From Candidatus Binatus soli (GTDB lineage Bacteria; Desulfobacterota; Binatia; Binatales; Binataceae), in the NCBI GenBank assembly GCA_002479255.1, contig DLMJ01000032.1, positions 30,908 to 94,907 of the forward strand: a stretch of DNA of 64,000 bases, read 5' to 3'. A program made the position numbers and the translations under genes. Below the pieces are notes generated by a model. That model made no database searches and had not been told where the DNA came from. It saw only the letters and a list, made by a program, of their open reading frames with translations. Numbering within the stretch: position 1 is the first letter of the stretch; every line of letters begins with the position of its first letter. This document shows, in pieces, positions 49,587-64,000 of this stretch.

Positions 49587-50381
49587 TCACTTTTGCTCTC
49601 CGAGGCTCCTGACATACGCCTTCATCGCGTCGATCGCCCAGTCGGTCGTCATCAGATCCATGAAGAGGTTGCGCTCGAGCTTAAGGCCCTCGGCCAGCGG
49701 CGTCTGCATCGCCGATCGCGCCAGGCGCTTGATGTGGGCCATCGCGCGCGGAGACTGGCTCGCGAGCTGACTCGCCACTTCCATCGCCCGTTCCAGGGCC
49801 TTGCCCTGCGCCATTTCATTCACCAGACCAAAGGCGGCCGCTTCGCGTGGGGTGAATCGTCGCCCGAGCAGCATGAACTCCAGCGCCTGTGCGGTGCCGA
49901 CTATGCGCGGCAGTCGCTGCGTGCCTCCCCCGCCCGGCAAGATACCAACGGTCACTTCCGGGAGCCCCAGCTGATATGGGCCGTCTTCGACGATGCGGAT
50001 ATCGCAGCAGAGCGCGAATTCGAGCCCGCCACCCATGCAGTTGCCATTGATCGCGGCAATGGTCGGCTTGGGCATCGTCTCGACGCGGTCGCAGGCTCTA
50101 TCGAGTGAAAAGCTCTGTGGCTCGCTGCGTTCGTCGAACCTGGCCCCACTAGCGCGCAGTTGCTCGGCGATCGCTACCAGTTCCTGGACCGAGTAGTGCT
50201 GGATGAAAACCCCAGGCGACCCGCCGGTGAAGACCGCGGCGCGGACGCTCTGGTCAGATTCAATCTCGCGCGTGACCGCGTCGAGTTCTTCCCCGGTCTG
50301 CGCCGTTAGATAGATCGACTTGGGAGTGCCGATCGTCACCAAAGCGATTCCCTGGTCCTTTACCATTTTTACCTGCTGCAT
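49587..50381 (-). CDS. Enoyl-CoA hydratase/isomerase (crotonase) family protein
   Basis: KPTIAAINGNCMGGGLEFALCCDIRI and GLPEVTVGILPGGGGTQRLPR. Confidence 0.85.
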   Translation of the reverse strand: MQQVKMVKDQGIALVTIGTPKSIYLTAQTGEELDAVTREIESDQSVRAAVFTGGSPGVFIQHYSVQELVAIAEQLRASGARFDERSEPQSFSLDRACDRVETMPKPTIAAINGNCMGGGLEFALCCDIRIVEDGPYQLGLPEVTVGILPGGGGTQRLPRIVGTAQALEFMLLGRRFTPREAAAFGLVNEMAQGKALERAMEVASQLASQSPRAMAHIKRLARSAMQTPLAEGLKLERNLFMDLMTTDWAIDAMKAYVRSLGEQK

Positions 50382-50599
50382 TGGTTACTCCTCGCTCTGG
50401 TCGCTCACGTGCTCAATTCGTCGAGCAGCGCCTTGGCGTCCTTCAGATCGGCGGTGTCGAAGCCTTCCTACCTGTCGTGCTTTCGGTCCCGCACTTCGAG
50501 CATTGCATTGCTGTACCCAGGTTAGAGGCTGGCAAATCTTCTATCACCCGCCGTCAGGAACAGACAGACAGCCGAACAGCGCCGGAGGGGCGGCGCCGC

Positions 50600-50677
50600 G
50601 TGGCCGGTCCACCGCGGATCCACGGCGAATTGTTGATGCTTGGAATCGAATTCGCTGAATCAACTGTCGGCAGGTAT
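50600..50677 (+). pseudogene. Short fragment of an rve-type IS transposase/integrase N-terminal region
   Basis: VAGPPRIHGELLMLGIEFAESTVGRY matches the WGAPRIHGELLKLG...STV.RY block as I recall it. Nothing resembling the rest of the protein flanks it. Confidence 0.4.
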
Positions 50678-50746
50678 TATACTGTTCGGATCGGGTCGAT
50701 CTTTGCCGCACAGGAAATGCCTCTTTCCTGATCAGGATTAAGTACG

Positions 50747-53281
50747 ATGTCCGACGATGCCGCTCCGACTCTGCTGCCTACTCGCGTGGCGGATGAGCCA
50801 GCTAAGCCTTCATCGAGCGCGGGCATTCGCACACTGCTCGACCTGTTCCGCCAATTTGCCGACATTCGCTCCGAGTGCGTCGTTTACTACGACGGATACC
50901 GGAGCTGGAGCTATCGTTACGACGAGATCGCAGGGGCCAGCCGCGCCTTCGCTGAGCGGCTGCGGCGCGAGTCCATCGGCAAAGGCGACAAAGTTCTCAT
51001 CTGGTCCGAGTCTCGTCCCGAATGGATCGCCGCGTTCTGGGGCTGCCTGCTCAACGGAAGCATCGTAGTTCCGATCGACTACCGCTCCTCCGCCGAGGTG
51101 ATGTGCAACATGCAGCAGGTGGTGCACGCGCGGCTGATGCTGATCGGCGATGACGTCCGTCTCCCCGCAAACGGATTGGACATCCCATGCTGGCGGCTGT
51201 GCGAAGTAGATCTGCACGCAGCCTCGCCCGCGCCCGCTGTGGAGATTTCTCCCGACGATACCGCCGAGTTGGTCTTCACCTCGGGTTCGACCGCGGCTCC
51301 CAAGGGCGTGGTGATAACCCATCGCAACCTCGCGGCCGATCTCGAGCCGATTCAGCGCGAGGTGATGAAGTATCGCGGCTACGTGCGCCCGATGTTTCCG
51401 TTGGGCTTCTTGAACCTGCTTCCGCTGAGCCACATGTTCGGGCAGCTACTGGCGATGTTTTTCCCGCCGATGCTGCCCGGAGTGGCGGTTCTAATGCGCG
51501 TCTACAGTCCGCAGGATATTGTGCGACAGATTCGCCGCCGCCGCGTCTCGTTCCTGGTCTGCGTTCCCAAGATGCTCGAAGTGATGCGCCAGTACGTGGT
51601 GCACAAGTTTCCGGAAACTGCCGCGGCCCCTCCCACCAACTCGCATTGGCTGGCGCGATGGTGGCGCTATAGGCGCGTGCATCGCATGTTCGGCCTCAAG
51701 TTCTGGGGCGTTGTAGTCGGCGGCGCCCCACTCGAACCTGCCCTCGAGGAGTTCTGGTCGCGCATGGGCTTCCTTGTCGTGCAGGGATACGGTCTCACCG
51801 AAACTGCACCGGTCATCAGCTTCAGCCATCCGTTTCACGGGCATCCCATTGGGAGCGCGGGGCAACCAATGTCCGGCGTTGAAGTCAAAATCGCTCCGGA
51901 CGGAGAAATCCTGGTGCGCGGCGACACAGTCACTCCCGGCTACTTCAACGCGCCTTCCGAAAGCATGAAAGTGTTCGAGAACGGATGGTTCCACACCGGA
52001 GACATCGGCAAGCTCGACGCCGGCTATTTGTTCGTCCGCGGACGCAAGAAGGAAATGATCGTCACGTCCGCAGGCCTGAAGATTTTTCCCGAGGACGTCG
52101 AACTCGTCATCAACGCAGTTGCGGGAGTGCGCGATTGCGCGGTGGTCGGCAAGGATCATGTTCACGCCGTGCTCGTGCTTGAACCCGGCGCCGACAAGGA
52201 ACAGGTGGTCGGTCTCGCCAACGCGCGACTCGAAGCGCATCAGAGAATACAAGCCGCTTCGGTATGGACCGCCGGTGACCTTCCGCGTGTCGAGGGAACC
52301 GGCAAACTCAAGCGCAGCGCGATCCAGAAATGGGTCGACGCCGGCGCGCCGGCTGGCGCCGCCAAACCGGCCGACGAGTTGGGCAAACTGATCGCGAGAT
52401 ATGCGCCCGATCGCGCAATCACACCCGAGACCACTCTCGATCAGCTGGGGCTAAGCTCGCTCGAGCGCGTCGAACTGCTCGTCGAACTCGAGCAGCAGTT
52501 CAACGCCACCATCGATGAGGCCGTTTTCACAGGCGCTTACAAAGTCGCGGATCTCGCGAAGATGCTGCACGCGCCAGCGGCCCTGCCCGAGGAATCCTTC
52601 GAGGCGAACACCTGGAACTGCAGCGTGGCCGCACGCGCGATACGGCGGGCCGGGCTGGCCGGATTCGCGATTCCGATGACCCGGCTCTTAATCAAGCTCA
52701 CGGTCACAGGGCTGAAACACCTCGAATCGATCGAGGCGCCGGTGATCTTCGCCGCCAATCACCAGAGCTACCTCGATGTTCCGGTGATCTTCACGGCGCT
52801 GCCTGCGCGCTGGCGCTACCGCGTCGCGCCCGCGATGCTCAAGGAATTCTTCGACGCGCATTTCCATCCCGAGCGGTATTCGAGATGGCGCCGATTCGTC
52901 GCCAGCACGAGCTACTTCGTCGCCGCGATGTTCTTCAACGGATTTCCGCTTTCGCAGCAGGAGGCGGACACCCGTCAGACGCTGCGTCATATCGGTGAGC
53001 TGGTCAGCGACAACTGGTCCATCCTGATTTTCCCGGAAGGCGGGCTCTCGGTGACCGGCGAGATCGAAGCGTTCCAGCCGGGAGCGGCGATGCTGGCAGC
53101 GCGGCTGCGCCTGCCGGTGATTCCAGTGCGGCTGCGCGGCCTCGACCGCATCCTCCCTCGCGGCGCCTCGATGATCCATCCTGGCCCTGCATCGGTTGCA
53201 TTCGGCGCACCGCTCCATCTGGAGGGCGAGGACTACACCGCCCTCGCAAGACGAATCGAAGAGGCCGTCCGCGTGCTGTGA
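50747..53281 (+). CDS. Tri-domain fusion: AMP-dependent acyl ligase, phosphopantetheine carrier domain and PlsC/LPLAT-family acyltransferase
   Basis: FTSGSTAAPKGV, GYGLTETAP, TGDIG and GRKKEMI (adenylation). LGLSSLERVELLVELEQQF with Ser571 (carrier). ANHQSYLDVP with His672 as HX4D, plus FPEGG (acyltransferase). Confidence 0.85.
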   Translation: MSDDAAPTLLPTRVADEPAKPSSSAGIRTLLDLFRQFADIRSECVVYYDGYRSWSYRYDEIAGASRAFAERLRRESIGKGDKVLIWSESRPEWIAAFWGCLLNGSIVVPIDYRSSAEVMCNMQQVVHARLMLIGDDVRLPANGLDIPCWRLCEVDLHAASPAPAVEISPDDTAELVFTSGSTAAPKGVVITHRNLAADLEPIQREVMKYRGYVRPMFPLGFLNLLPLSHMFGQLLAMFFPPMLPGVAVLMRVYSPQDIVRQIRRRRVSFLVCVPKMLEVMRQYVVHKFPETAAAPPTNSHWLARWWRYRRVHRMFGLKFWGVVVGGAPLEPALEEFWSRMGFLVVQGYGLTETAPVISFSHPFHGHPIGSAGQPMSGVEVKIAPDGEILVRGDTVTPGYFNAPSESMKVFENGWFHTGDIGKLDAGYLFVRGRKKEMIVTSAGLKIFPEDVELVINAVAGVRDCAVVGKDHVHAVLVLEPGADKEQVVGLANARLEAHQRIQAASVWTAGDLPRVEGTGKLKRSAIQKWVDAGAPAGAAKPADELGKLIARYAPDRAITPETTLDQLGLSSLERVELLVELEQQFNATIDEAVFTGAYKVADLAKMLHAPAALPEESFEANTWNCSVAARAIRRAGLAGFAIPMTRLLIKLTVTGLKHLESIEAPVIFAANHQSYLDVPVIFTALPARWRYRVAPAMLKEFFDAHFHPERYSRWRRFVASTSYFVAAMFFNGFPLSQQEADTRQTLRHIGELVSDNWSILIFPEGGLSVTGEIEAFQPGAAMLAARLRLPVIPVRLRGLDRILPRGASMIHPGPASVAFGAPLHLEGEDYTALARRIEEAVRVL

Positions 53282-53358
53282 AAGCAGGCCGCCAAAGCCC
53301 TCACGCGCCGCTTTCGCGATCTAGTCGCCGTGGCGGAGGTCTCGATGGCCGTAGTGCG

Positions 53359-54249
53359 CTATGGTATGAACTCGCCCGCGAAAGATGACACACACGCCAT
53401 GACGTGCGTGATCGCATCCGTATCGTATTCGTCTCCCGATCGGTACGTTTCGAAAAATGAGTTCAATCGCGCGACGCGCTCCGGCCACGCCTCAGCGGCC
53501 TGCAGGCCGACAGAGACGCCGAAGTTAGTGAAGGCAAATTTCACCGAATGCGCTCCCGGCTCGCGGCAGAAGTAGCCGGGCGGTTCGATCCACATCCGGT
53601 CAAGTATCGCGAGACTCCGCTCGCGCTGAACGCGTGCCCATTCTTCCTCAGGAAAGAAGCACGTCATCCATAGCATCATTCCAAGACCGAGGTCTTGAGT
53701 GATGACCAGGTTTTCGTAGCTTCGTTCGACGATGGTTTTCATCTGCCGGATCTCGTCTGCAAGCGCATCTTCATCAAGCAGCCGGTAAACAATGTATCCA
53801 TGGAATGGATCGAGCGAGCCTGGTCCGAAACCTGGATATGGTCCGCTCAAGTCTTCGAGCATTTTCCAGTGCATGCCCCGACCCGGAATCACGAAAGCGG
53901 GATGGATGTCCTTCACCAGTCGGATCGCTTTCGTGCGATATTCGGGAACTATCTTGCCCAGTCGTGATAGCGCGAAAGCCCACATCGCCAGATAGTGAAA
54001 GTATTGACCGTCCCGATCCGCGGCTTCGCCGATTCGGAAACCGCGCCGGCGTCCCAGCACACGCTCGACGTCTGCGACCACCCGCTGAGCTTCGTCCAGG
54101 AACTTGCTCTGCCCCAGTTTGTGGTAGAGCGAAACCAACAGAACGACGCCGAAAGCGTCGGTCCATAGGTATCGCATTCCATTGGGCCAGATGCGTTGTT
54201 CGCGCATCCAGTCGAGCCTGCTCAATACTTTTCTGACATTCGCGGTCAT
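53359..54249 (-). CDS. Conserved-looking hypothetical protein (helical-repeat composition)
   Basis: 296-aa ORF with ordinary composition and no motif I can name. Confidence 0.5.
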   Translation of the reverse strand: MTANVRKVLSRLDWMREQRIWPNGMRYLWTDAFGVVLLVSLYHKLGQSKFLDEAQRVVADVERVLGRRRGFRIGEAADRDGQYFHYLAMWAFALSRLGKIVPEYRTKAIRLVKDIHPAFVIPGRGMHWKMLEDLSGPYPGFGPGSLDPFHGYIVYRLLDEDALADEIRQMKTIVERSYENLVITQDLGLGMMLWMTCFFPEEEWARVQRERSLAILDRMWIEPPGYFCREPGAHSVKFAFTNFGVSVGLQAAEAWPERVARLNSFFETYRSGDEYDTDAITHVMACVSSFAGEFIP

Positions 54250-54308
54250 GTCGTTCGTCGTTCGTCGGCTCTCGTGGGGAGTTAGACCTCGAACGGTAAG
54301 TTTGGGAA

Positions 54309-56348
54309 TTATTTTCGTGAACCTGCGATAATCCCATCCGTCTGTTCCGATCCTGAGTCCGGACGCGGACCAAGGATGCGATTCAACTCGTCGGAACTAA
54401 CGGTCTCCTCCTGCAGAAGCGCATCAACGAGCCGATCCAGCTTCTCCCTGGAATCGGTCAAGCAACGGCGGACGCCTTCGTGGCCCTCCTCGAGCAGACG
54501 CGCGACCTCCTGGTCTATTCGGGCCGCGGTCGCTTCGCTGTAATCGCGTCCCTGCGAGATCTCGTATCCCAGGAAAGGCTGCTGCTCGTCGGTCTTGAAA
54601 GCCGCGAGTCCGAGCTTGCTCATCCCCCAACGGGTCACCATGCGGCGGGCCAAACGCGTGGCTTCCACCAGGTCATTCTCCGCGCCGGTGGTTACCTCGC
54701 CGAAGACGATCTCCTCCGCAGTGCGTCCGCCGAGCATCACTGCCAGCCGCGCCTTCAGATAGGAGAGGCTCAGGTTATGGCGGTCTTCGCCCGGGACCTG
54801 CTCCGTCATCCCAAGAGCCTGTCCGTGGGGTATGATTGTCACCTTGTGCACCGGATCCGCAGCCGGAGTCAGCCACGCAACTACCACGTGTCCACACTCG
54901 TGATAGGCAATCACGCGTCGTTCGCCGGGATTCACCAGTTGCGGATGAGCCGCACCCATCCGGACCTGGTCCTGACTCTCTTCAAAATCCGCCATCGTAA
55001 CAGCGTTATGGTCGTGTCTGGCCGCGGCAAGCGCCGCCTCGTTGCAAAGGTTCGCCAAGTCCGCCCCGCTCATGCCTATGGTGCTGCGCGCGAGAGTGGA
55101 CAGATCCACATCGTCGGAGAGTCGGAGCTTGCCTGTGTGGATGCGCAGGATACCTTCGCGGCCTATTTTGTCGGGAAGACTAATCACCACCTGACGATCG
55201 AAACGTCCCGGCCGCAGCAGCGCTGGATCGAGAACGTCCGGCCGATTGGTCGCCGCGAGAACGATGACCTCGAGCCGCTCGTCAAAACCGTCGAGTTCGC
55301 CCAAAAGCTGGTTGAGCGTCTGTTCGCGTTCGTCGTTGACTGCCCCCAGGCCGGCGCCGCGTCGCCGTCCGACCGCATCCAACTCGTCGATGAACACGAT
55401 CGCCGGCGCCGCCTCCTTGGCTTGCCGGAACAAGTCTCGTACACGGCTCGCTCCTACGCCGACGAACATCTCGACGAACTCGGATGCATTGAGGCTGAAA
55501 AACGGGACCCCAGCCTCGCCTGCTACGGCGCGTGCCATAAGAGTCTTGCCGGTTCCCGGCGCTCCGACCAGCAGCACACCTCTGGGAATTCGTGCCCCCA
55601 GGTCGTGGTACTTTTGGGGGTGCCTCAGGAAATCGACCTCCTCCTGAAGCTCGGACTTGGCCTCGTCCGCCCCTGCCACGTCATTGAAAGTCACCTTTGG
55701 CTGCTCGCTACTGTAGCGCTGGGCCCTCATGCGCCCAAACCCGAACAAACCCGATTGACTACGTGCGGCTCGGTTGCTCATCCACCAGAAGAACCCGAGC
55801 AGAAGTATCAGCGGCCCCCATGTAACCAGCATCTCGACGAACCACGGAAGTGAAGACGACGACACGTCTACGACGACATGGTGCGCTATGAGCAGAGGCA
55901 TCATGCCGGGGTCGGTGACGGTCGCGGGAAAGGTCGTGCTGAATTCGCTGTATGCAGTGGGGGCTTGTGGCGCTGCGCTTGGGCTTATGCTCGGTGGCGA
56001 TGCAGAAGGCGGCTGCGCGGGTTTCGACGATGGTTCTGTCGGAGATTCGACCGGTGGCCAAACGATCTGTTTTACAAATTCCCCCTTGATCACGTCTCCC
56101 GTGATGTGAACCCGGGAGACGTTGTTCTCCCGCACCTGCGCGAGAAACAAGGAATAGGGGATAGGAGCCTTGGACTGCGACCATGGCCACATGCCGGCGA
56201 CGTACCAGATCAGCACCGCCAGGGACATCAGCCACCAGAACAGGACGCCGCGCGGGAGCGGCGGCTGCCCCGTCCCCGTCATTCTCTTTTGTGGCTTCCC
56301 TTCCTGCTGCGCCATTTGCCGCATCCTTCGCCCCTTGCAACGTTCCAC
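54309..56348 (-). CDS. ftsH: ATP-dependent zinc metalloprotease FtsH
   Basis: [39 protein letters not shown], the SRH region, [10 protein letters not shown] (HExxH) and two N-terminal TM helices. The exact start is uncertain. Confidence 0.9.
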
Positions 56349-56379
56349 AAAAACCAGGCCGAGCGGCGCCCGCAGGTGC

Positions 56380-56583
56380 CTACGAGAAACCGTCGAACCT
56401 CTCGGCGAATTTATCCGCCAGGATCGCGCTCGACGGAAACTCGCACATCACGTAGACCTCGAGTTCTTTGTGCCCGCGCTTCAGACGGAAGTCAAATGGG
56501 AGAACCTCGACGAAACGGTGGGATGCCCGCGCGCTCGCGAGTATCCCACCCTGTTGTGCGCTTACTGCACCGGCGCCAGTTCA
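56380..56583 (-). pseudogene. Internal fragment of a PEP-utilising enzyme (PpsA-like)
   Basis: A start-less frame bounded by stops encodes HKELEVYVMCEFPSSAILADKFAERFDGFS. This matches the PpsA block ...[30 protein letters not shown] but terminates before GSND. Confidence 0.45.
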
Positions 56584-56693
56584 ATGCGCCGGTTCTGCCC
56601 GCGACCCTCAGCAGTGTCGCTCGCAAACGCGAGGTCAAGCAAGCCCAAGCGCGAAAGGACCGCGGCGTCGCGAGGCCGCGGTCCTCGTGAGAA

Positions 56694-57062
56694 TCAGCCC
56701 TTGGGCGCAGGCGGCTGAGCCTCGGGGCCCGGACCATTCCATTGGCGATAGCGCCAACCCTCCGGAGGCCCGTAGTAGCCGCCGCCGGGACCATAACCCG
56801 AGTAAGGCGGCGGAGGTGGGCCATAGGGCATCACGCGCGGCCCTTCGCAGTCTCGCGTTCCCATCATCGGCGGCGGGTGGTGATGCCGGTGATGGCCGGC
56901 TATCAAGATCGACAGCGCCACCAGGACGAGCGCCGCAATCAAGCCGCCTCGCCACCATCGATTTTCCCGCTGCGCCACGAACTCGAGGCTTTCGATGCGT
57001 CGCTCGAGCCGGCCCAGCGCGTCGTCATTCTGACTCGGGGTACTGGTTGATTCTTCGGGCAC
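56694..57062 (-). CDS. Small single-pass membrane protein with a His/Pro/Gly/Tyr-rich C-terminal region
   Basis: 122 aa with a coiled N-terminus, the TM helix GGLIAALVLVALSILIAG, then HHRHHHPPP...GYGPGGGYYGPPEGW. Confidence 0.5.
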   Translation of the reverse strand: MPEESTSTPSQNDDALGRLERRIESLEFVAQRENRWWRGGLIAALVLVALSILIAGHHRHHHPPPMMGTRDCEGPRVMPYGPPPPPYSGYGPGGGYYGPPEGWRYRQWNGPGPEAQPPAPKG

Positions 57063-57163
57063 GTACTTCTTGCTCCTTGTCGAACAATAATGATAAACGC
57101 GAGTCGCTCTCTATGTAAGACGCCAGCAGTTCACCGCGGTTTCGCGCCACCTCGCTCGCAGCG

Positions 57164-57215
57164 ACCCGGCTCCCTCCGTCATCCCGACCGAAGCGGAGGG
57201 ACCCCGGGTCTTTTT
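57164..57215 (+). terminator. Strong intrinsic-terminator-like hairpin with no upstream plus-strand gene
   Basis: GACCCGGCTCCCTCCG, a 15-nt loop, CGGAGGGACCCCGGGTC (about 15 bp with one bulge), then TTTTT. Confidence 0.5.
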
Positions 57216-57515
57216 CCGTCTCACTCCGAACTAAGTTCGCCTCCGTCAGCGCCACGCGGCGCGCACCGCTTGGTCCGCGAGGCGCATCGGCGTAATCTCT
57301 CTCCCTTGGCGGAGGCCCTCAGCTCATATGGATAAATCACACGATTCCTCGTCTTGGCGTCGTGGGTTCGAATCGTGCTCCGAGTCCCCGAGCTCCGACG
57401 ACACTGGCTGAGCTCCCGCATTTCCGGTAGTACCTGTGAACGATCCGGAATCTCATGGAGTATGAAATCGGCGGTCGAGTCAGAATTTTTCCATGGCTGA
57501 GCAGTTTAAGACGAA

Positions 57516-58424
57516 ATGCAAAAAGCGTCGATTCTAGCGAAGTTATTTTCTGCAATTGGTTCCAACGATTTGCCCGCTGCCCACTCGATAGCGCTCGAGA
57601 TGGCGCGCGCCGAGGCTAACAACGGGCACCACGCTGTTGCCAAACTGCTGCAAGGCTCTCTACAACCCAACGGCAACGGCGGCCGGATTTGGCATACGCA
57701 GTCGGGCGAAACCATGCAGGTTGGTGGCATCATCAATGCTTTGATCGCAGTAACCAATTTGGAACCAATCGAGCGAGTGGTGCTCACCACCCATGCGCGT
57801 CGCGAACTTGATGATGTGGTGCGCGAATGGAAGGCTCGCAAAGCGCTGGAAAGGAAGGGTATTCGACGGCGAAACAAGCTCCTGTTTTACGGTCCGCCGG
57901 GCTGCGGAAAAAGTCTAACGGCGAGAGCGCTCGGTCGGGAACTCGCGCTCCCTGTTTACACGCTGCGGTTTGATGCAATCGTCGGCGCGTTTCTGGGGCA
58001 GACAGCACAGAGGCTGCGGCAGCTATTCGAGTTCGCATCGTTCACGGCATGTGTGCTCTTAATCGATGAAATCGACGCGCTCGGCAAACGTCGGGGTAAC
58101 CCCATGGACGTGGGAGAATTGGATCGAATAGTCATTTCGCTAATGCAAGAGTTGGAGCATTCAGAACCGAAAGGGCTCTTAGTTGCTGCGTCGAACTTGG
58201 CTGGAAGTCTCGACGAAGCGCTATGGCGCCGATTTGACTTGGTCGTCGAGTTTCCCAAACCAGGACGTACGCAGCTCACATCGTTCGCCTTGTCTCATGC
58301 TCGTGACCGAGGTGTTGCTCCATCGCCAACACTCCGTAGGGCTATAGCAGCGTCATCGACCTTTGCCGACGCTGTCAGGGCGATTGAAAACGAGCAGAGA
58401 ACCGTGGTTATTTCTGCGAGTTGA
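57516..58424 (+). CDS. ietA: AAA+ ATPase (classic AAA clade), IetA-like
   Basis: Walker A is LLFYGPPGCGKSLTARALG, Walker B is VLLIDEIDALG, and AASNLAGSLDEALWRRFD is the sensor/arginine-finger region. GC is lower. The stop lies 3 nt before the next gene's start. Confidence 0.8.
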   Translation: MQKASILAKLFSAIGSNDLPAAHSIALEMARAEANNGHHAVAKLLQGSLQPNGNGGRIWHTQSGETMQVGGIINALIAVTNLEPIERVVLTTHARRELDDVVREWKARKALERKGIRRRNKLLFYGPPGCGKSLTARALGRELALPVYTLRFDAIVGAFLGQTAQRLRQLFEFASFTACVLLIDEIDALGKRRGNPMDVGELDRIVISLMQELEHSEPKGLLVAASNLAGSLDEALWRRFDLVVEFPKPGRTQLTSFALSHARDRGVAPSPTLRRAIAASSTFADAVRAIENEQRTVVISAS

Positions 58425-58427
58425 AAC

Positions 58428-60812
58428 GTGCCTAAAGGTCAGGACGCACCCGCTCCGCGAACTTTCTTTCTCAACGAGCAGCATGAACTCGCCCATGGAG
58501 AAAGCGCTGGCGGCGGTGCCTTGCCGAAACTGGCATCCGTAGATTGGGGCGCAAAAGGCCGCCGAATCAACAAGTCCCTAAGCGAAGCGCGCCACGCGGT
58601 TGAGGCTTCACGTGACCCTTTGAAGCGCCGTCGCTACTTTTTGCTTGCAAAGCCCGTCGAGGCCGTCGCGAAGCTCAGCCAGAACAAGACGAAGGCCCCA
58701 GACGGAACGTACAGCGAACTGACGCACTATGGTGGTGAACACTCGTTAGTTTTTAGACGTCTCGGACTCGACCTCATTTCCGTCCATGACAATGGATCTG
58801 CCACCGTTCATGCGCCCACCGACCGTATGGAACGGCTACTTGCGACCACTCGATCGCTTGCCGATGAAGGGCTGCGAGAACAGGCGCGATGGGCGACAAT
58901 CGATGCGTTTTCTACCATACCGCCAGGTCTTCGAGTGGATGAGATCTGGTTGAAGAGCCTATCGCCTGCGCTACCGACAGACGTAGTAGTCGAGTTTCAG
59001 CCGATGCTCACCCGAACCGAGATTGAAGACGTTATGCGGGCATTGGCAAGCGTGCTTAGCCAAGCGAATCGGGAGGCGTTCACCGGGAGTGGAAACGATT
59101 TCTCAGGTCGTCACTGGCTGCGAGGCCAAGTCGCACGAAGGTCTCTGCAATCGATGGCAAGCGATTTTTTCTCTGTCCAATCGCTACACCCTCCACTCTC
59201 TACTCCGATCGCGGTTTCCTCGGGTCCTCGTTCGAGAACGAGAGGACAAACTGTTCAGAAAAAGAGTGGCGGTCAAGTTGACTCTAAACGAATGCCGTGT
59301 GTGGCTGTCGTCGACACTGGAGTGCCCACTGCTCATAAGATTTTGACGCCTTATCGCAGGCCTGGCGGATATCAGAGCCCGAATTCTCCCTCGCCGCATT
59401 TGGGCGATCACGGTTCTTTCGTGGCCTCACGAGTAGTTTTTGGCGACGTAGACTGCAGCGATGGTAACTTCCCAGATGATCAAGGAAACTGCGGCTTCTT
59501 AGACGTAATGGTGGCCGAAAGCGTTGATCGGATATTCGACAAAGATATCCTTCCTGCTCTTGAAGCCGTTATCGCCACGTCACCTGACGTCCGAGTATTC
59601 AATTTGAGTCTGGGCGATTTCACGCCCCTCCAGTCTTTCAACGACGTTGAACGCCGGGAGAAGCTTCTTCTCCTCCAAGACTTGGACAATTTCGTATTCG
59701 CGAGGGACGTGCTGGTAGTTGTGGCGGCGGGAAATACAAGACCAGGACTCATACCGTCGGTCCCATACCCAAACAATTATCAAGATCCGAACTGGGCTCT
59801 CGGTAGCTGGGCGACTGGATTCAATACTCTCACATGCGGTTCGACCGTTGAAAGGCTTTCTCCGGACGGCCTGGTCAAGGAGGTAGGATGGCCAAGCCCT
59901 TTTACGCGAGTCGGACCAGGAATATGTGACGCCCCGATACCTGGATTTTCGGCTCACGGCGGCAACACAACAGAGAGTTATCAAGCGAAGCCATTTCTTG
60001 GAGTCTGGGGCTGCACGGCGGATGCGCTATGGGAAGACAGATGCGGCACTTCACATGCTGCTCCGCTTGTTGCCCGTGAGGCCGCGTTCGCACTTCAAGA
60101 GCTACAAAACTTCTGTCCTTCGGGTGCTCGTCCCTTTGCAGCGACTGCGAAGGCATTTTTGGCACTAACAGCTGTCAAGAGATCGTATCCTCCTCAAGTG
60201 AAGCAGCTAGTAGAGCGCACGCTTGGGCGAGGAACGCCTAACGCGGCAAGATTGCAACGACCCACCACCCAGACCGCCGTGATGATCTGGCAGGGAGTTC
60301 TGAATAATGTCGGCGACATAGCTAGAGTTCAGGTGCCCATTCCGCGCGAGTGGCTCAAGACTGCAACCGCTCCGCGCCTGAGGGTTTTGTGCGCTTGGGA
60401 TTCACCGGTCCACGAAGCCGTTCACGACCTTTGGGCCTGCAGACAGGTTACAATTCATCTAAAGCCTACTGCAGCCTCTAAAGCCATTCGTGGTTCACAA
60501 TCTCATCACCGCAGCTACCCAATGATTGACCGGACGTACGATCTCGATCTGAAACGATTTACCGAAAGGGGAATTAGTTTTGATAGCGATACCGCCATTC
60601 TCGAATTGTCGTATTCTCAAACGGCAGACTATCATCCAGCCATTTCATTCAGTCCCCAACAGAAGATCGGCCTGAGCCTTGAACTCTTTGATGAGTTCGA
60701 ATCACCATCGAGTCCTCAAGCCTATGTGCAAGCATTGCCAATGGCGAAGACAATGACCAGACTCAGTATCCAGTCCGTTCCACTTGCTACTCCGGTACTG
60801 ATTCGGCAGTGA
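58428..60812 (+). CDS. ietS: S8 (subtilisin-like) serine peptidase with a large N-terminal unknown domain, IetS-like
   Basis: Catalytic triad motifs in D-H-S order: VAVVDTGV (Asp296), GDHGSFVAS (His328) and GTSHAAPLVA (Ser542). No signal peptide. GTG start coupled to the AAA gene. Confidence 0.8.
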   Translation: MPKGQDAPAPRTFFLNEQHELAHGESAGGGALPKLASVDWGAKGRRINKSLSEARHAVEASRDPLKRRRYFLLAKPVEAVAKLSQNKTKAPDGTYSELTHYGGEHSLVFRRLGLDLISVHDNGSATVHAPTDRMERLLATTRSLADEGLREQARWATIDAFSTIPPGLRVDEIWLKSLSPALPTDVVVEFQPMLTRTEIEDVMRALASVLSQANREAFTGSGNDFSGRHWLRGQVARRSLQSMASDFFSVQSLHPPLSTPIAVSSGPRSRTRGQTVQKKSGGQVDSKRMPCVAVVDTGVPTAHKILTPYRRPGGYQSPNSPSPHLGDHGSFVASRVVFGDVDCSDGNFPDDQGNCGFLDVMVAESVDRIFDKDILPALEAVIATSPDVRVFNLSLGDFTPLQSFNDVERREKLLLLQDLDNFVFARDVLVVVAAGNTRPGLIPSVPYPNNYQDPNWALGSWATGFNTLTCGSTVERLSPDGLVKEVGWPSPFTRVGPGICDAPIPGFSAHGGNTTESYQAKPFLGVWGCTADALWEDRCGTSHAAPLVAREAAFALQELQNFCPSGARPFAATAKAFLALTAVKRSYPPQVKQLVERTLGRGTPNAARLQRPTTQTAVMIWQGVLNNVGDIARVQVPIPREWLKTATAPRLRVLCAWDSPVHEAVHDLWACRQVTIHLKPTAASKAIRGSQSHHRSYPMIDRTYDLDLKRFTERGISFDSDTAILELSYSQTADYHPAISFSPQQKIGLSLELFDEFESPSSPQAYVQALPMAKTMTRLSIQSVPLATPVLIRQ

Positions 60813-60860
60813 ATCGTTCTCTACGAATCGTTTCTCGAAATGAACGACAAATGACGGTGA

Positions 60861-61988
60861 TTACCGCAATGCCGGCTCGACCAAATTGCACGAGTAGGTC
60901 TTGATCACCAGCCAGACCTCCTTCCCATCTTCGATTCCCAACGCATCGATCGCCCCCGGCGTCAGATGAACCTCGAACGTCGCGCCTCCCGCATCGACCA
61001 TCACGATCACCGTCACGCCTTGACGGCGCATCGATTCGACTCGTCCCGGAAAAGCGTTGCGCGCACTTAGACCGTGCGGATGCTCGCCCGCTACGATGAT
61101 ATCGCCGGCGCGAATCGCGATTCGCACCCGCGCTCCCGCTTCCGCGCGGCCGAGCGGCACTTCCAGTCGAGTCGCGCTCCCGTCCAACTGACACAGCATC
61201 GTGCCCTGAGTCTCCGCGATCGATCTCACCGTCGCGTCGAAAACATTTTCGAAGCCGACTACCTGCGCGATCGTTTCATGGCGCGGCGTCGTGAGCACGT
61301 CTTGCGGCATCCCCTGGGCGAGGATGCGCCCCGCTTCGAGCACTAACACCCGCTCGCCGAGCGCGAATGCCTCCTCGGGCGAATGCGTGACGTACAGGAT
61401 TGGAATTTCGCGGGCCGCATTCCAGGCGCGCAGGTCATCGAGAATCTTCGACCGGGTCGCGTTGTCCAGCGCGACCAGCGGCTCGTCGAGCAGGATCGCC
61501 GCCGGATTCGTCACGAGCGATCGCGCCAGCGCCACGCGTTGGCGCTCGCCGCCGGAAATCTCGCCGGGCTTGCGCGCGATCAGATGCGCGATTCGAAACG
61601 ACTCGAGCATCGTCATCATTCGCGCGTGGCGCTCCGCGGCCGGCGCCTTCGCGATCCCGTATTGGACGTTTTGCGCGACCGTCAGATGGGGAAACAGCGC
61701 GAGATTTTGAAACACGTATCCCAATCGACGCTCCGCCACCGGCATGTCGATGCGCGCAGCCGAATCGAAGAGCACTCGCGCACCGAGAGATATCCGCCCG
61801 GCATCCGGCCGCGCCAACCCCGCAATGCAATTCAGGATGGTCGTCTTTCCGCCGCCCGACGGCCCAAGGATCATCGTGAAGCCGGCCGACGCCTCGAACT
61901 CGGCCTCGAGCGCGAAGCTGTTCGAGAGCCGATACGCGATGCGGACCGACAGACGCCCGTCGCGTATCGCACTGTTGCCCGATGCCAT
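60861..61988 (-). CDS. modC: Molybdate ABC transporter ATP-binding protein with a C-terminal TOBE/Mop domain
   Basis: ILGPSGGGKTT (Walker A), ISGGERQRVALAR (signature), ILLDEP (Walker B) and a C-terminal TOBE-like beta region. The ATG at 61988 is chosen; the 605-aa ORF extension overlaps modB out of frame. Confidence 0.85.
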   Translation of the reverse strand: MASGNSAIRDGRLSVRIAYRLSNSFALEAEFEASAGFTMILGPSGGGKTTILNCIAGLARPDAGRISLGARVLFDSAARIDMPVAERRLGYVFQNLALFPHLTVAQNVQYGIAKAPAAERHARMMTMLESFRIAHLIARKPGEISGGERQRVALARSLVTNPAAILLDEPLVALDNATRSKILDDLRAWNAAREIPILYVTHSPEEAFALGERVLVLEAGRILAQGMPQDVLTTPRHETIAQVVGFENVFDATVRSIAETQGTMLCQLDGSATRLEVPLGRAEAGARVRIAIRAGDIIVAGEHPHGLSARNAFPGRVESMRRQGVTVIVMVDAGGATFEVHLTPGAIDALGIEDGKEVWLVIKTYSCNLVEPALR

Positions 61989-62005
61989 CGTTTCGCCACC
62001 GCCCG

Positions 62006-62683
62006 CTAGCGATGCATCGGCCAGACCGCCCAGATTCGGCGGTTGAGCGAATACGTGATCGACAGCGTGACGAACGAAAACGCCATCAGGATAAGCGCCA
62101 TGTGATTGGCGCCGGCGTAGTCGAGCGCCTGCACATGATCGTAAATCGCGATCGAAACCGTGCGCGTCACGCCCGGGATGTTGCCGCCCACCATCAGCAC
62201 CACGCCGAACTCGCCGAGCGTGTGCGCGAAGCTCAGCACGAAGCCGGTGACCACCCCGCCGATCGAAAGCGGGAGCACGACGCGAAGGAAAGTGCGAATC
62301 CGCGAGGCGCCGAGTATCGACGACGCGCTGATCAAGTTGCGATCCACCTGTGAGAACGCCGCCGCCATCGGCTGGACCGCAAAGGGCAGGCTGTAGATGA
62401 CCGACGCGATCGCCAGACCTTCGAATGTGAACGGCAATCCGTGCCCCGTTAAAGATTGATACCAGCGGCCGATCGGACTGTTCGAACCCATCGCGACCAG
62501 CACATAAAAACCGAGCACGGTCGGCGGAAGCACCAGAGGCAGCGCGACGATGGATTCGACGAAAAATTTCCATCGCCAGCGCGTGAAGCTGAGCCACAAC
62601 GCGATGGGCGTCCCGACCACCAGCAAAATTGCGCAAACGACCAGCGCGAGCCGCAGGCTGAGGAAAATCGCGCTCCAATCCAT
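62006..62683 (-). CDS. modB: Molybdate ABC transporter permease
   Basis: 225 aa, 5-6 TM helices, an EAA-loop-like ASSILGASRIRTFLRVVLP and LPPTVLGFY. Confidence 0.85.
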   Translation of the reverse strand: MDWSAIFLSLRLALVVCAILLVVGTPIALWLSFTRWRWKFFVESIVALPLVLPPTVLGFYVLVAMGSNSPIGRWYQSLTGHGLPFTFEGLAIASVIYSLPFAVQPMAAAFSQVDRNLISASSILGASRIRTFLRVVLPLSIGGVVTGFVLSFAHTLGEFGVVLMVGGNIPGVTRTVSIAIYDHVQALDYAGANHMALILMAFSFVTLSITYSLNRRIWAVWPMHR

Positions 62684-62689
62684 CGGAGG

Positions 62690-63595
62690 TCAGCGCGGCG
62701 CGGCCACTTTGCTTTCGTTGTGCCCCACGGCTACGTCCTTCGGAACCGAGAAACCATATCGCTCCATCAGAGCTACCGTCCCGGGCTCCTTGAGGAATTT
62801 CAGAAACTGGGCTGCCAGTTCCTTGTTGCGCGATGATTTCAGAATCACGCCGGCTTGGATGATCGGCGGATAGTCCGTCGCCCGGATTTCGACGTATCGT
62901 CCGGCGTTCTTCATCGCCGGCGCGAGCGCGAGCGAGAGCGCGAGGATGCCGACGTCGGCGTTGCCGGATTGAACAAACTGGGCGGTCTGCGAGATATTTT
63001 CGCCGAGCACGAGCTTGCTTTTGATCTTGTCATAGACCGCCGCGTGGCGCATCGCCGCAACCGCCGCGATCCCGTACGGCGCATGCTGCGGGTTGGCGAT
63101 CGCGATCTTTCGGATGCCCGGATCGAGGATCGCCGCAAGACCGCGGCTTAAATCGAGCTTCGACGCGTTGGGAACCCACATCACGATTTTTCCGCTCGCA
63201 TATTCGTAGATAGTGCCGGGTTCAGCCAGGCCCGCCGCTTCGAGCTTTTCCGGATAGCCAACGTCGGCGGAAAAGAACAGATCAAACGGCGCGCCATTTT
63301 GAATCTGGGCGAAAAAATTCCCGGATGAACCATAGGTGAGCTCAATCTTGCTCCCGGTTTGCTTCTCAAATTGGGAGGCAACGTCCTTGAACGCGAACGT
63401 CAGGTCCGACGCCGCGGCGACTTTGATTTCCGCGGCGCCCGCCCCGGCAGGGAGCCGCATACAAAGAATAGTTGCGAGAGCGAAAAGCGCCCGCAAAACG
63501 ACTTTCGCGTGCTTGCCATCAAGGATTAGATTCACGAATCGCCTCCAGTTTCCCGATTTCCCAGGCATGCTGTTCGCCATAATACTTGTCATCAC
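62690..63595 (-). CDS. modA: Molybdate ABC transporter periplasmic binding protein
   Basis: IKVAAASDLTFAF...TYGSSGNFFAQIQNGAPFDLFFSAD is canonical ModA. The start is uncertain because the N-terminus looks over-extended. Confidence 0.85.
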   Translation of the reverse strand: MMTSIMANSMPGKSGNWRRFVNLILDGKHAKVVLRALFALATILCMRLPAGAGAAEIKVAAASDLTFAFKDVASQFEKQTGSKIELTYGSSGNFFAQIQNGAPFDLFFSADVGYPEKLEAAGLAEPGTIYEYASGKIVMWVPNASKLDLSRGLAAILDPGIRKIAIANPQHAPYGIAAVAAMRHAAVYDKIKSKLVLGENISQTAQFVQSGNADVGILALSLALAPAMKNAGRYVEIRATDYPPIIQAGVILKSSRNKELAAQFLKFLKEPGTVALMERYGFSVPKDVAVGHNESKVAAPR

Positions 63596-63710
63596 CGCTT
63601 GAATAATGGCACACCTCCGGACGGTCGCACAGTGGCGGCGGCGGTTTCACCGGGGCCGGGCGAGCATTGATTCGTGCTGGTTCTCATCGTTAAGTAGGGA
63701 AAGGACACAA

Positions 63711-64000
63711 ATGGACAAGATGAACAAAATTGCGACATTTGGCGCCGGATGCTTCTGGGGCGTGGAATCGGCTTTTCGCGCGGTCAAGGGCGTCGTCGAT
63801 GCGGTCGTAGGATACGCGGGCGGCACCGTTCCAAAGCCCGACTATCGAGCGGTTTGCACCGGCAAGACGGGACACGCCGAAGTCGTGCAGGTGGAGTACG
63901 ACCCGGCGCGGGTATCGTACGAGCAACTGTTGGAAGTTTTCTGGCAGATTCACGACCCCAGCACGCTCAACCGGCAAGGACCCGACGTCGGCACTCAATA
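63711..64000 (+). CDS. msrA: Peptide-methionine (S)-S-oxide reductase MsrA; 3' end runs off the window
   Basis: Not in the ORF track because it has no stop. The ATG at 63711 follows AGGGAAAGGA and encodes [22 protein letters not shown]...GYAGG...[13 protein letters not shown] (GCFWG active site). Confidence 0.9.

Follow-up and report, generated by a model that had tools for sequence, protein, structure and literature searches.

What would an ATPase and a cytoplasmic protease, encoded back to back among housekeeping genes, do for the cell that carries them? The question is raised by a two-gene locus, here called ietA–ietS, in a 64,000-nucleotide stretch of Candidatus Binatus soli DNA (assembly GCA_002479255.1, contig DLMJ01000032.1, positions 30,908 to 94,907; hereafter the window, within which all coordinates are given). 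Pairs of an ATPase gene, ietA, and an S8 protease gene, ietS, were reportedly described as a defence system in systematic screens by Gao et al. in 2020. The two genes of the window are coupled as an operon, share homology and architecture with such pairs and have intact motifs; they co-diverge, are foreign in composition to their surroundings and are patchily distributed. Taken as a whole, the locus is best explained (at a probability that we would put near 0.6) as a horizontally acquired IetAS-type module, in which IetA would restrain a zymogen-like IetS until a phage cue or the loss of IetA releases it and the infection is aborted.

IetAS family membership of the pair

A preliminary description of this stretch, made from its letters alone, had noted a 302-residue ATPase ending 3 nt before the GTG start of a 794-residue protein, and we recover the same coordinates (Table 1): the TGA stop of ietA (58422–58424) is followed by AAC and then by the ietS GTG. 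The ATPase motifs quoted there, GPPGCGKS and LLIDEID, can be read directly as Walker A (K132) and Walker B (D184/E185), and are joined by sensor-1 N227, the Arg fingers R238/R239 and a pore loop of the form G157-[A/S]-[Y/F]159-L160-G161-Q-T (F159-L160-G161 in the window protein). Across 68 family members Walker A and B, the pore loop, N227 and the stretch R238-R239-F-D are invariant or nearly so, with the pore-loop aromatic at position 159 being Tyr in 58 and Phe in 8. IetA is a single AAA module with a pore-loop aromatic–hydrophobic–Gly triplet and a second region of homology bearing Arg fingers, the features of the classic clade, and its nearest solved structures are the D2 domains of VCP/Cdc48 (E=2e-40). 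These motifs read as the marks of an active motor that would grip and thread polypeptide; the protein is probably hexameric.

We compared both proteins with the hidden Markov model library of PADLOC, scoring matches to individual models rather than applying system-level rules or coverage thresholds. Four IetA models match the ATPase, the best being PDLC02196 (E=4.8e-61, residues 3–266), and another of the four, PDLC04232 (E=1.2e-58), runs from residue 1 to residue 300 of 302 over model positions 1–299 of 330. Secondary matches to TRIP13 models (E=1.6e-15) arise because the AAA core is shared. As a specificity control, the FtsH encoded in the same window reaches E=1.7e-34 on PDLC02196 via its AAA core alone; a lone IetA-model match thus does not speak for an IetAS system, and the assignment of IetA rests on the full-length model match combined with the adjacent IetS-like protease. 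Over the AAA core, identity with the IteA annotated on Acidovorax p1-T1 is 43%.

The protease carries the complete D296/H328/S542 triad previously claimed for it, in the signatures VVDTG, HGS and GTSHAAP, plus the oxyanion-hole residue N436 (GN), and all four residues are invariant or more than 90% conserved in 42 homologues. Pfam Peptidase_S8 (PF00082) matches residues 290–584 (E=1.6e-17, 64 bits against a cut-off of 21.8). Seven PADLOC IetS models match the protein, the best being PDLC02197 (E=1.7e-40, residues 242–640), and none from elsewhere outranks them. The suspicion that this is an IetAS-like pair is thereby upheld: models of both partners match (4.8e-61 and 1.7e-40), the NCBIfam IteA and IteS families are likewise the top ones, and gene order, near-touching reading frames, protein sizes and catalytic residues are as in the experimentally studied pairs. 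Profile–profile alignment (hhalign) of 42 homologues of the window protease with 34 canonical IteS sequences (from E. coli, Klebsiella, Pseudomonas, Burkholderia and others) gave a probability of 99.7% (E=6.7e-27) over residues 234–673, the positive control of S8 domain against S8 domain giving 99.8% (E=2.9e-30).

In all, 636 IetS homologues were found, most of them full length at ~790 residues. Members of the window's clade are labelled by NCBI only as “S8 family serine peptidase”, and no solved structure occurs among the sequence relatives. Neither IetA nor IetS has a signal-peptide-like hydrophobic stretch or a membrane helix by a heuristic hydropathy scan (maximum 19-residue Kyte–Doolittle score of 1.34–1.41, and 0.21 within the first 30 windows), in agreement with the earlier view of IetS as lacking a signal peptide. 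By its core the pair is thus placed in the IetAS family, as a divergent clade whose protease appears to have private N- and C-terminal domains. Homology with characterised IetS is limited to roughly residues 234–673.

Domain organization of IetS

An AlphaFold2 model of IetS built with the family alignment (mean predicted local distance difference test score (pLDDT) 89.6, predicted template modelling score 0.91) comprises an α/β region at ~30–260, a disordered segment at 264–280, the S8 domain at ~286–610 and a β-sandwich at ~611–794; pLDDT falls below 50 at 264–273 and 277–280. Extra regions on both sides of the core had been recognised beforehand and do exist, at sizes other than those first proposed (~290 N-terminal and ~250 C-terminal residues): the N-terminal region spans ~260 residues and is followed by a 25-residue linker, and the C-terminal domain spans ~180. 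Mean identity to the window protein is 43.5% for the N-region, 50% for the S8 core, 40.9% for the C-domain and 10% for the linker. Both flanking domains are under constraint, with identities of 41–44% against 10% in the linker.

The N-domain profile, searched against 1.84 billion representative proteins, returned 207 matches (~200 clusters at 50% identity). All full-length matches are proteins of 777–807 residues with the domain at ~1–260, and the remainder are fragments. Because no other architecture occurs among these representatives, the domain is private to this clade; the idea of a shuffled sensor module was discarded on the same ground. Modelled alone, the N-region has a pLDDT of 87.5, and neither the PDB nor the viral models offer a significant match to it as a whole domain, such that mimicry of a viral or solved fold was likewise rejected. 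The sole N-terminal similarity to canonical IteS is a collinear “E-x-GGG...[VI]D” plus helix, which is non-significant (E=0.038).

Part of the N-region resembles a protease propeptide. A local Foldseek match links the region to POIA1, an inhibitor of the propeptide type (1v5i_B; probability 0.99, template modelling score 0.64, root-mean-square deviation 3.5 Å over 81 columns); we infer this match to belong to residues 184–254, the search output giving no residue range. Against the PDB the full model matches many subtilases (E from 1e-12 to 6.5e-20), best of all ProN-Tk-SP (3afg), a subtilase whose structure includes the N-propeptide and a C-terminal β-jelly-roll; the pro-forms 3whi and 2zwo are matched too, and KP-43 (1wmd), with its C-terminal β-domain, is among the best whole-chain matches. 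IetS has no Pfam Inhibitor_I9 sequence match, and its likeness to I9-type propeptides is one of structure only, carried by POIA1 and by the pro-forms. At the end of this unit S249, Q251, H254 and P256 (S249-x-Q251-x-x-H254-x-P256) are invariant in 42 sequences, and it is at the last helix and strand of the unit that homology to canonical IteS resumes in the hhalign comparison.

A further conserved element lies near the N-terminus, where L15, N16, E17, H19 and E20 of the peptide FFLNEQHEL are invariant in the same number of sequences. The peptide has a pLDDT of ~90 in the full-length model and below 50 in the N-domain modelled alone; as it is confidently placed in the full-length model only, it probably docks on another domain, either the catalytic or the C-terminal one. 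The models thus suggest a zymogen-like protein composed of propeptide-like unit, disordered linker, S8 core and β-sandwich, and it is from them that autoinhibition, and any proposal as to which domain senses what, would follow.

Table 1. Positions in the window of the two genes, the parts of their products and adjoining features (aa, amino acids).
Feature	Position	Strand	Description or basis
ietA	57516–58424	+	ATG start; 302 aa; classic-clade AAA+ ATPase, putative antitoxin/regulator
AAA+ core of IetA, aa 122–247	57879–58256	+	Pfam PF00004, E=5.9e-28
ietS	58428–60812	+	GTG start; 794 aa; cytoplasmic S8 subtilase, putative toxin/effector
Clade-specific N-terminal region of IetS, aa 1–260	58428–59207	+	Tandem α/β (ferredoxin-like) units
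Invariant N-terminal peptide, aa 10–25	58455–58502	+	“PRTFFLNEQHEL..GE” then GGG motif; conservation, pLDDT
I9-like β-α-β-β-α-β unit, aa 184–254	58977–59189	+	Ends in “SVQSLHPPL”; secondary structure, local Foldseek match
Disordered hypervariable linker, aa 261–285	59208–59282	+	Between propeptide-like unit and S8 domain
S8 catalytic domain, aa 286–610	59283–60257	+	Pfam PF00082 (residues 290–584), Foldseek, hhalign
C-terminal β-sandwich, aa 611–794	60258–60809	+	Model mostly β-strand, pLDDT ~90
Non-coding leader upstream of ietA	57160–57515		Left edge of the acquired segment somewhere inside
ftsH	54309–56348	−	Neighbour gene

Distribution, mobility and surroundings of the locus

Among reference genomes, 75 loci with relatives were found, in Acidobacteriota, Planctomycetota, Verrucomicrobiota (Akkermansia among them), Myxococcota, Pseudomonadota and Chloroflexota. 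In at least 58 of these loci ietS is directly preceded, on its own strand and across a gap of −47 to +10 nt, by an IetA homologue, and the exceptions are mostly contig ends or broken genes. When the 1,070 open reading frames (ORFs) of the 75 loci were clustered, IetA and IetS were the sole gene families conserved throughout, and a third partner gene was rejected accordingly. Pairwise distances between IetA proteins follow those between the IetS proteins (r=0.91, Mantel p=0.001). Across at least six phyla the two genes are conserved as a unit and diverge together. Two carriers are cultured, Polaromonas aquatica 36b22 (L023 in our numbering of related loci; NZ_CP192467.1), whose protease is 48% identical to that of the window, and Myxococcus eversor AB053B (L036; 41%); both pairs are intact, making these strains practical hosts for genetic tests.

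Composition sets the pair apart, as had been said of it previously. GC content is 0.556 in ietA and 0.544 in ietS, with 0.600 for the window, and GC at third codon positions (GC3) is 0.574 and 0.523 against 0.71–0.81 in ftsH, the gene for a 122-residue protein and modCBA. Nucleotide similarity to the nearest relative (L104, 69% identity) covers 57506–60808, essentially the two ORFs alone, and this confinement to the ORFs led us to reject the presence of conserved regulatory DNA. A partly degraded copy of 69% identity has a tyrosine integrase, transposases of IS21 and IS110, ArdC and SSB beside it; a tRNA gene lies 0.4–2.8 kb upstream of the pair in five related loci, and integrases, resolvases and primase-like genes recur sporadically nearby. 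From the GC3 contrast, the scatter across phyla, the similarity limited to ORFs and the mobile-element neighbours, the pair emerges as a minimal horizontally moving cassette. At least 24 contigs, read from many samples, carry the identical protein. The nearest relative has a 190-residue ORF without a Pfam match (L104:1512–2084), which overlaps the ietA start and has no counterpart upstream of ietA in the window.

Carriage by phages was considered and rejected, IMG/VR holding no relatives and GenBank phages yielding only two distant S8 matches. An S8 peptidase of Escherichia phage vB_EcoS-683R6 (ON470595.1, 27973–28884) shares 28% identity with the IetS core (residues 284–605), and may be a phage-borne canonical IetS.

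The left boundary of the acquired segment is bracketed by two comparisons: nucleotide similarity of the 122-residue gene region to its other contexts stops at 57159, the left limit of host-like sequence, and similarity to L104 starts at 57506. The motif GGTTCGAATC at 57365–57374 lies within a hairpin with an 8-bp stem (57340–57377), and it is this element that had been taken for a flanking tRNA-like relic. No tRNA is recognised by ARAGORN anywhere in the window, or by Rfam (E<=1) over 50000–64000; a tRNA relic or attachment site is not borne out, and GGTTCGAATC sits in a plain hairpin. A 12-nt direct repeat with one mismatch, TGGGTTCGAATC (57363–57374) and TGAGTTCGAATC (60692–60703), encloses most of the pair, the first copy being the “tRNA-like” motif and the second lying within the ietS coding sequence ~110 nt ahead of its stop. 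This repeat is the sole flanking direct repeat and the sole candidate resembling an attachment site, and is probably due to chance. A search of metagenomes with the flanking 122-residue protein revealed no empty site, its close homologues lying in unrelated contexts. On the right, only 48 bp separate the stops of the convergent genes ietS and modC, and no terminator was recognised there.

Gene order around the pair runs FtsH, 122-residue protein, IetA–IetS, modCBA and msrA, the earlier identification of modCBA as a neighbour being correct; this context includes no mobility or defence gene. The 122-residue protein (gene at 56694–57062, minus strand) has an N-terminus that is coiled, a single hydrophobic helix, a stretch rich in His and a tail rich in Pro, Gly and Tyr. 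Together with ~100 bp on each side (56617–57159) the gene is 85–93% identical in nucleotides to at least 15 metagenome contigs from peat and soil whose flanks contain no FtsH, IetAS or modC, and this region is a small conserved unit amid changing surroundings. The program-made ORF list gives modC as 605 residues from a TTG start (60861–62678, minus strand), reading through modB; on identical contigs ModC is called as 375 residues, equivalent to 60861–61988, with ABC_tran and TOBE domains. Farther off, at ~14000–45000, a long run of minus-strand genes with many glycosyltransferase, epimerase/dehydratase and methyltransferase domains is probably a polysaccharide biosynthesis cluster, and the window also encodes an XFP phosphoketolase, an acetate kinase and a NAD-dependent DNA ligase.

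Proposed restraint of the protease, rival readings and known systems

We next considered how the ATPase might govern the protease. In pTiC58 and in the E. coli ietHAS system the protease is a toxin and the ATPase its antitoxin; an ietA mutant was not clonable, and defence depends on the active site of the protease (PMC13069673). A mycoplasma pair of AAA-ATPase (353 residues) and subtilisin (757 residues) is a functional chromosomal toxin–antitoxin (TA) system, in which deletion of the antitoxin is lethal and the ATPase neutralises toxicity (PMC8562856). The ietAS of B. cereus acts by abortive infection and is toxic upon co-expression with a single SPβ protein (10.1101/2022.08.27.505566), and that of E. 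coli ECOR52 is weak alone and synergizes with Zorya II (10.1101/2022.08.21.504612). The preliminary description had called the mechanism of the class essentially unknown, and the same is stated in 2026 of the mechanism by which IetAS acts against phages, which “remains unknown” (PMC13069673).

By homology with these systems, IetA of the window is most likely an antitoxin and IetS a toxin, with abortive infection as the outcome. In the uninfected cell, ATP-dependent remodelling by IetA would keep IetS proteolytically silent. A phage-encoded protein, or some other perturbation of the IetA supply, would lift this restraint, and the released IetS would cleave cellular and/or phage proteins such that growth is arrested and the infection aborted. 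The same logic of restraint would make the pair an addiction module for its carrier DNA.

The genes found beside related pairs bear on the defence side of this proposal. We scanned 383 ORFs within 6 kb of the pair, from 37 loci, with PADLOC at E<=1e-10. Defence families (type I restriction–modification components, the UG13 reverse transcriptase RT_UG13, PrimPol, PDC-M11A, PDC-M21, Hhe and PDC-S37) lie beside a minority of the loci; the scan also returned generic kinase, helicase, IscS and “mad” matches, and most neighbours are housekeeping genes by Pfam. In a control of 94 ORFs taken from unrelated regions, the only matches were generic mad2/mad3 ones and an FtsH cross-match.

Several observations weigh against restraint and abortive infection as the role of the window pair. 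The excess of defence genes near related pairs is modest and, with a control of 94 ORFs, not statistically secured; in the window and in most of the 37 loci the pair stands solitary among housekeeping genes, and no clade member occurs on IMG/VR viral contigs. The curated NCBIfam models score far under their cut-offs, IteA_antiphage (NF042959) giving IetA 185.5 bits against 510 and IteS_antiphage (NF042956) giving IetS 123.5 bits against 900. Residues 1–262 of IetS match no PADLOC IetS model at E<=1 (the N-domains of two canonical IteS, as positive control, match at 2.4e-101 and 3.8e-62), the C-domain has one marginal match (PDLC04233, E=0.013, residues 613–691), and hhalign against canonical IteS gives probabilities of 0.3–1.4% for N-domain with N-domain and 0.1–0.2% for C-domain with C-domain. 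Residues 1–233 and 674–794 are thus without detectable homology to any characterised IetS, at the level of profile comparison, and because these non-homologous ends are the likeliest to set trigger and target, regulation and specificity may differ. A scan of the leader yielded no sigma-70-like promoter on the plus strand (only sigma-70 consensus sites were sought, and the host is not E. coli-like), and there is no excess of terminators around the pair. Lastly, the conserved pore loop of IetA would suit just as well an ATPase whose task is to feed or activate the protease.

Could the pair serve addiction alone, killing the cell upon its loss and stabilizing the DNA segment that carries it, with no phage-defence role in the native host? 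IetAS was first described as a plasmid-stabilizing TA system on pTiC58 (Yamamoto et al, 2009, as cited in PMC13069673 and PMC8562856), the chromosomal mycoplasma homologue is a TA pair without a known defence role, and the window pair and most of its relatives form solitary islets among housekeeping genes rather than parts of defence islands. Disrupted copies, which make up about a fifth of related loci, point the same way at first sight: ietS is broken and ietA intact in 12 loci, and the reverse holds in 2 (L013 and L044; L021 and L033 were false alarms and are left out of the count). Ten of the twelve have a frameshift or internal stop (L029, L038, L039, L043, L045, L064, L066, L074, L076 and L079); in the other two an insertion sequence splits ietS, an IS630-like element (HTH_33/HTH_32) in a Bryobacterales genome (L042:10463–11548) and an rve-type DDE transposase in a Kofleriaceae genome (L072:8273–10000). 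The pattern is suggestive of toxin-first decay. However, once gene length is allowed for (ietS is 2.6 times longer) the one-sided binomial p is ~0.2, and toxin-biased pseudogenization was rejected; we do not rely on the asymmetry, because of that length difference and because many of the metagenome-assembled genomes are long-read assemblies prone to frameshift errors. We judge an exclusive role in addiction to be unlikely, given that the E. coli and Bacillus homologues protect against phages, that TA and abortive-infection roles are not mutually exclusive, and that some related loci adjoin type I restriction–modification, UG13 reverse transcriptase, PDC-M11A/M21 and Hhe genes.

It is quite improbable, in our estimate, that IetA works in favour of the protease, delivering substrates to IetS or pulling off its propeptide-like domain in some specialized turnover or processing. 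The invariant aromatic–hydrophobic–Gly pore loop and Arg fingers would suit such a motor, as would the closest relatives of IetA (Cdc48/VCP, PAN and FtsH), and in the models IetS resembles a zymogen before processing, its propeptide-like unit still tethered and its linker flexible enough for a motor to engage. Set against this, the ATPase neutralises the toxicity of the protease in three unrelated experimental systems, no third or substrate gene is conserved beside the pair, and a patchy spread across phyla, foreign codon composition and association with mobile elements are at odds with a housekeeping role. That the pair is a decaying or silent remnant, acquired and no longer expressed or functional in this genome, is very improbable indeed: its lack of a recognisable sigma-70 promoter or terminator and of a strong Shine–Dalgarno sequence ahead of ietS (by inspection), and the disrupted copies elsewhere, are outweighed by two intact ORFs with all catalytic residues present, an identical protein on so many contigs, a promoter scan restricted to one consensus in a host of another kind, and near-touching ORFs that suggest translational coupling.

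Restraint of a zymogen-like IetS by IetA can be drawn in finer detail, as an “AAA+-gated zymogen” immune protease whose N-terminal region acts as both phage sensor and lock and is reset by IetA; we regard this version as doubtful. The propeptide-like unit and the “SVQSLHPP” junction would lie in the active-site cleft as an uncleavable pseudo-substrate, with the “FFLNEQHEL...GGG” peptide docked on the catalytic or C-terminal domain. A hexamer of IetA would continuously engage one of these elements, or the hypervariable linker, and thereby reset the lock; a phage protein bound to the N-terminal units would halt the resetting, hence freeing the protease. If true, this would be the first mechanistic model for the IetAS class, and would explain why flanking domains are swapped between clades and the core and ATPase are kept.

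Known systems resemble the window pair to differing extents. TRIP13-type AAA+ proteins of CBASS are remodellers encoded beside an immune effector, which they are thought to hold off via ATP-dependent remodelling; they are of another AAA+ subfamily, with a HORMA/cyclase partner and no protease, and the likeness is one of analogy only. Pro-subtilisins (Tk-SP, 3afg; KP-43, 1wmd; pro-subtilisin E, 3whi) share with IetS the order of propeptide-like unit, S8 core and β-sandwich. They are secreted proteins with signal peptides and an auto-processed propeptide, whereas IetS is cytoplasmic, has ~180 extra N-terminal residues, no Pfam I9 match and a conserved Pro-rich junction (“SLHPP”), and is paired with an AAA+ ATPase.

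Among TA and defence pairs, ietHAS (Liu-DS4; PMC13069673) has IetA and IetS components and is where the active-site requirement was established; unlike the window clade, which has no conserved third gene, it includes an SNF2 helicase as an essential third gene. TA132/133 of Mycoplasma mycoides likewise stands alone on the chromosome as a module of two genes that was transferred horizontally; its antitoxin gene lies upstream, and its protease is toxic in heterologous hosts (PMC8562856); its host is very distant and the likeness is by description, not sequence. The same holds for IetA/IetS of Agrobacterium pTiC58, which is of the same type (AAA-ATPase antitoxin with subtilisin-like protease toxin) and follows the logic of an addiction module, yet is plasmid-borne with a function in stability and incompatibility; pTiC58 is absent from tblastn matches at E<=1e-5.

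The closest counterparts are the canonical IetAS (IteA–IteS) pairs of E. coli, Pseudomonas, Klebsiella and plasmid p1-T1 of Acidovorax sp. T1 (locus L081). As in the window, an ATPase gene lies directly upstream of the gene for a ~750–800-residue cytoplasmic S8 protease, with touching or overlapping ORFs, a collinear length plan and an IetA model matched end to end, and the AAA cores and protease cores (234–673) are related as described above. The differences lie in the protease ends (1–233 and 674–794 of the window protein, without detectable homology), in the length of the ATPase (387 residues for canonical IteA against 302), in the hosts, which are soil and freshwater phyla for the window clade, and in setting: the Acidovorax pair sits beside Shedu and an integrase on a plasmid, whereas the window clade is mostly solitary on chromosomes. 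This clade extends a known family and overturns nothing; its existence will not surprise a specialist, and its value is comparative. It constitutes a well-populated and previously unrepresented IetAS branch (~200 clusters at 50% identity, six phyla or more and two carriers in culture), and marks a limit of current annotation, in that the curated NCBIfam models miss it and single IetA-model matches are unspecific (~1e-34 for FtsH). Because ATPase and protease core are kept and both flanking domains are unrecognisably different, comparison between the clades separates a conserved engine (the AAA+ motor including the pore loop, the protease's S8 core, and the final element of the propeptide-like unit together with the junction) from exchangeable parts (the N-terminal α/β units and the C-terminal β-sandwich), and so offers a practical guide for mutagenesis and structural work.

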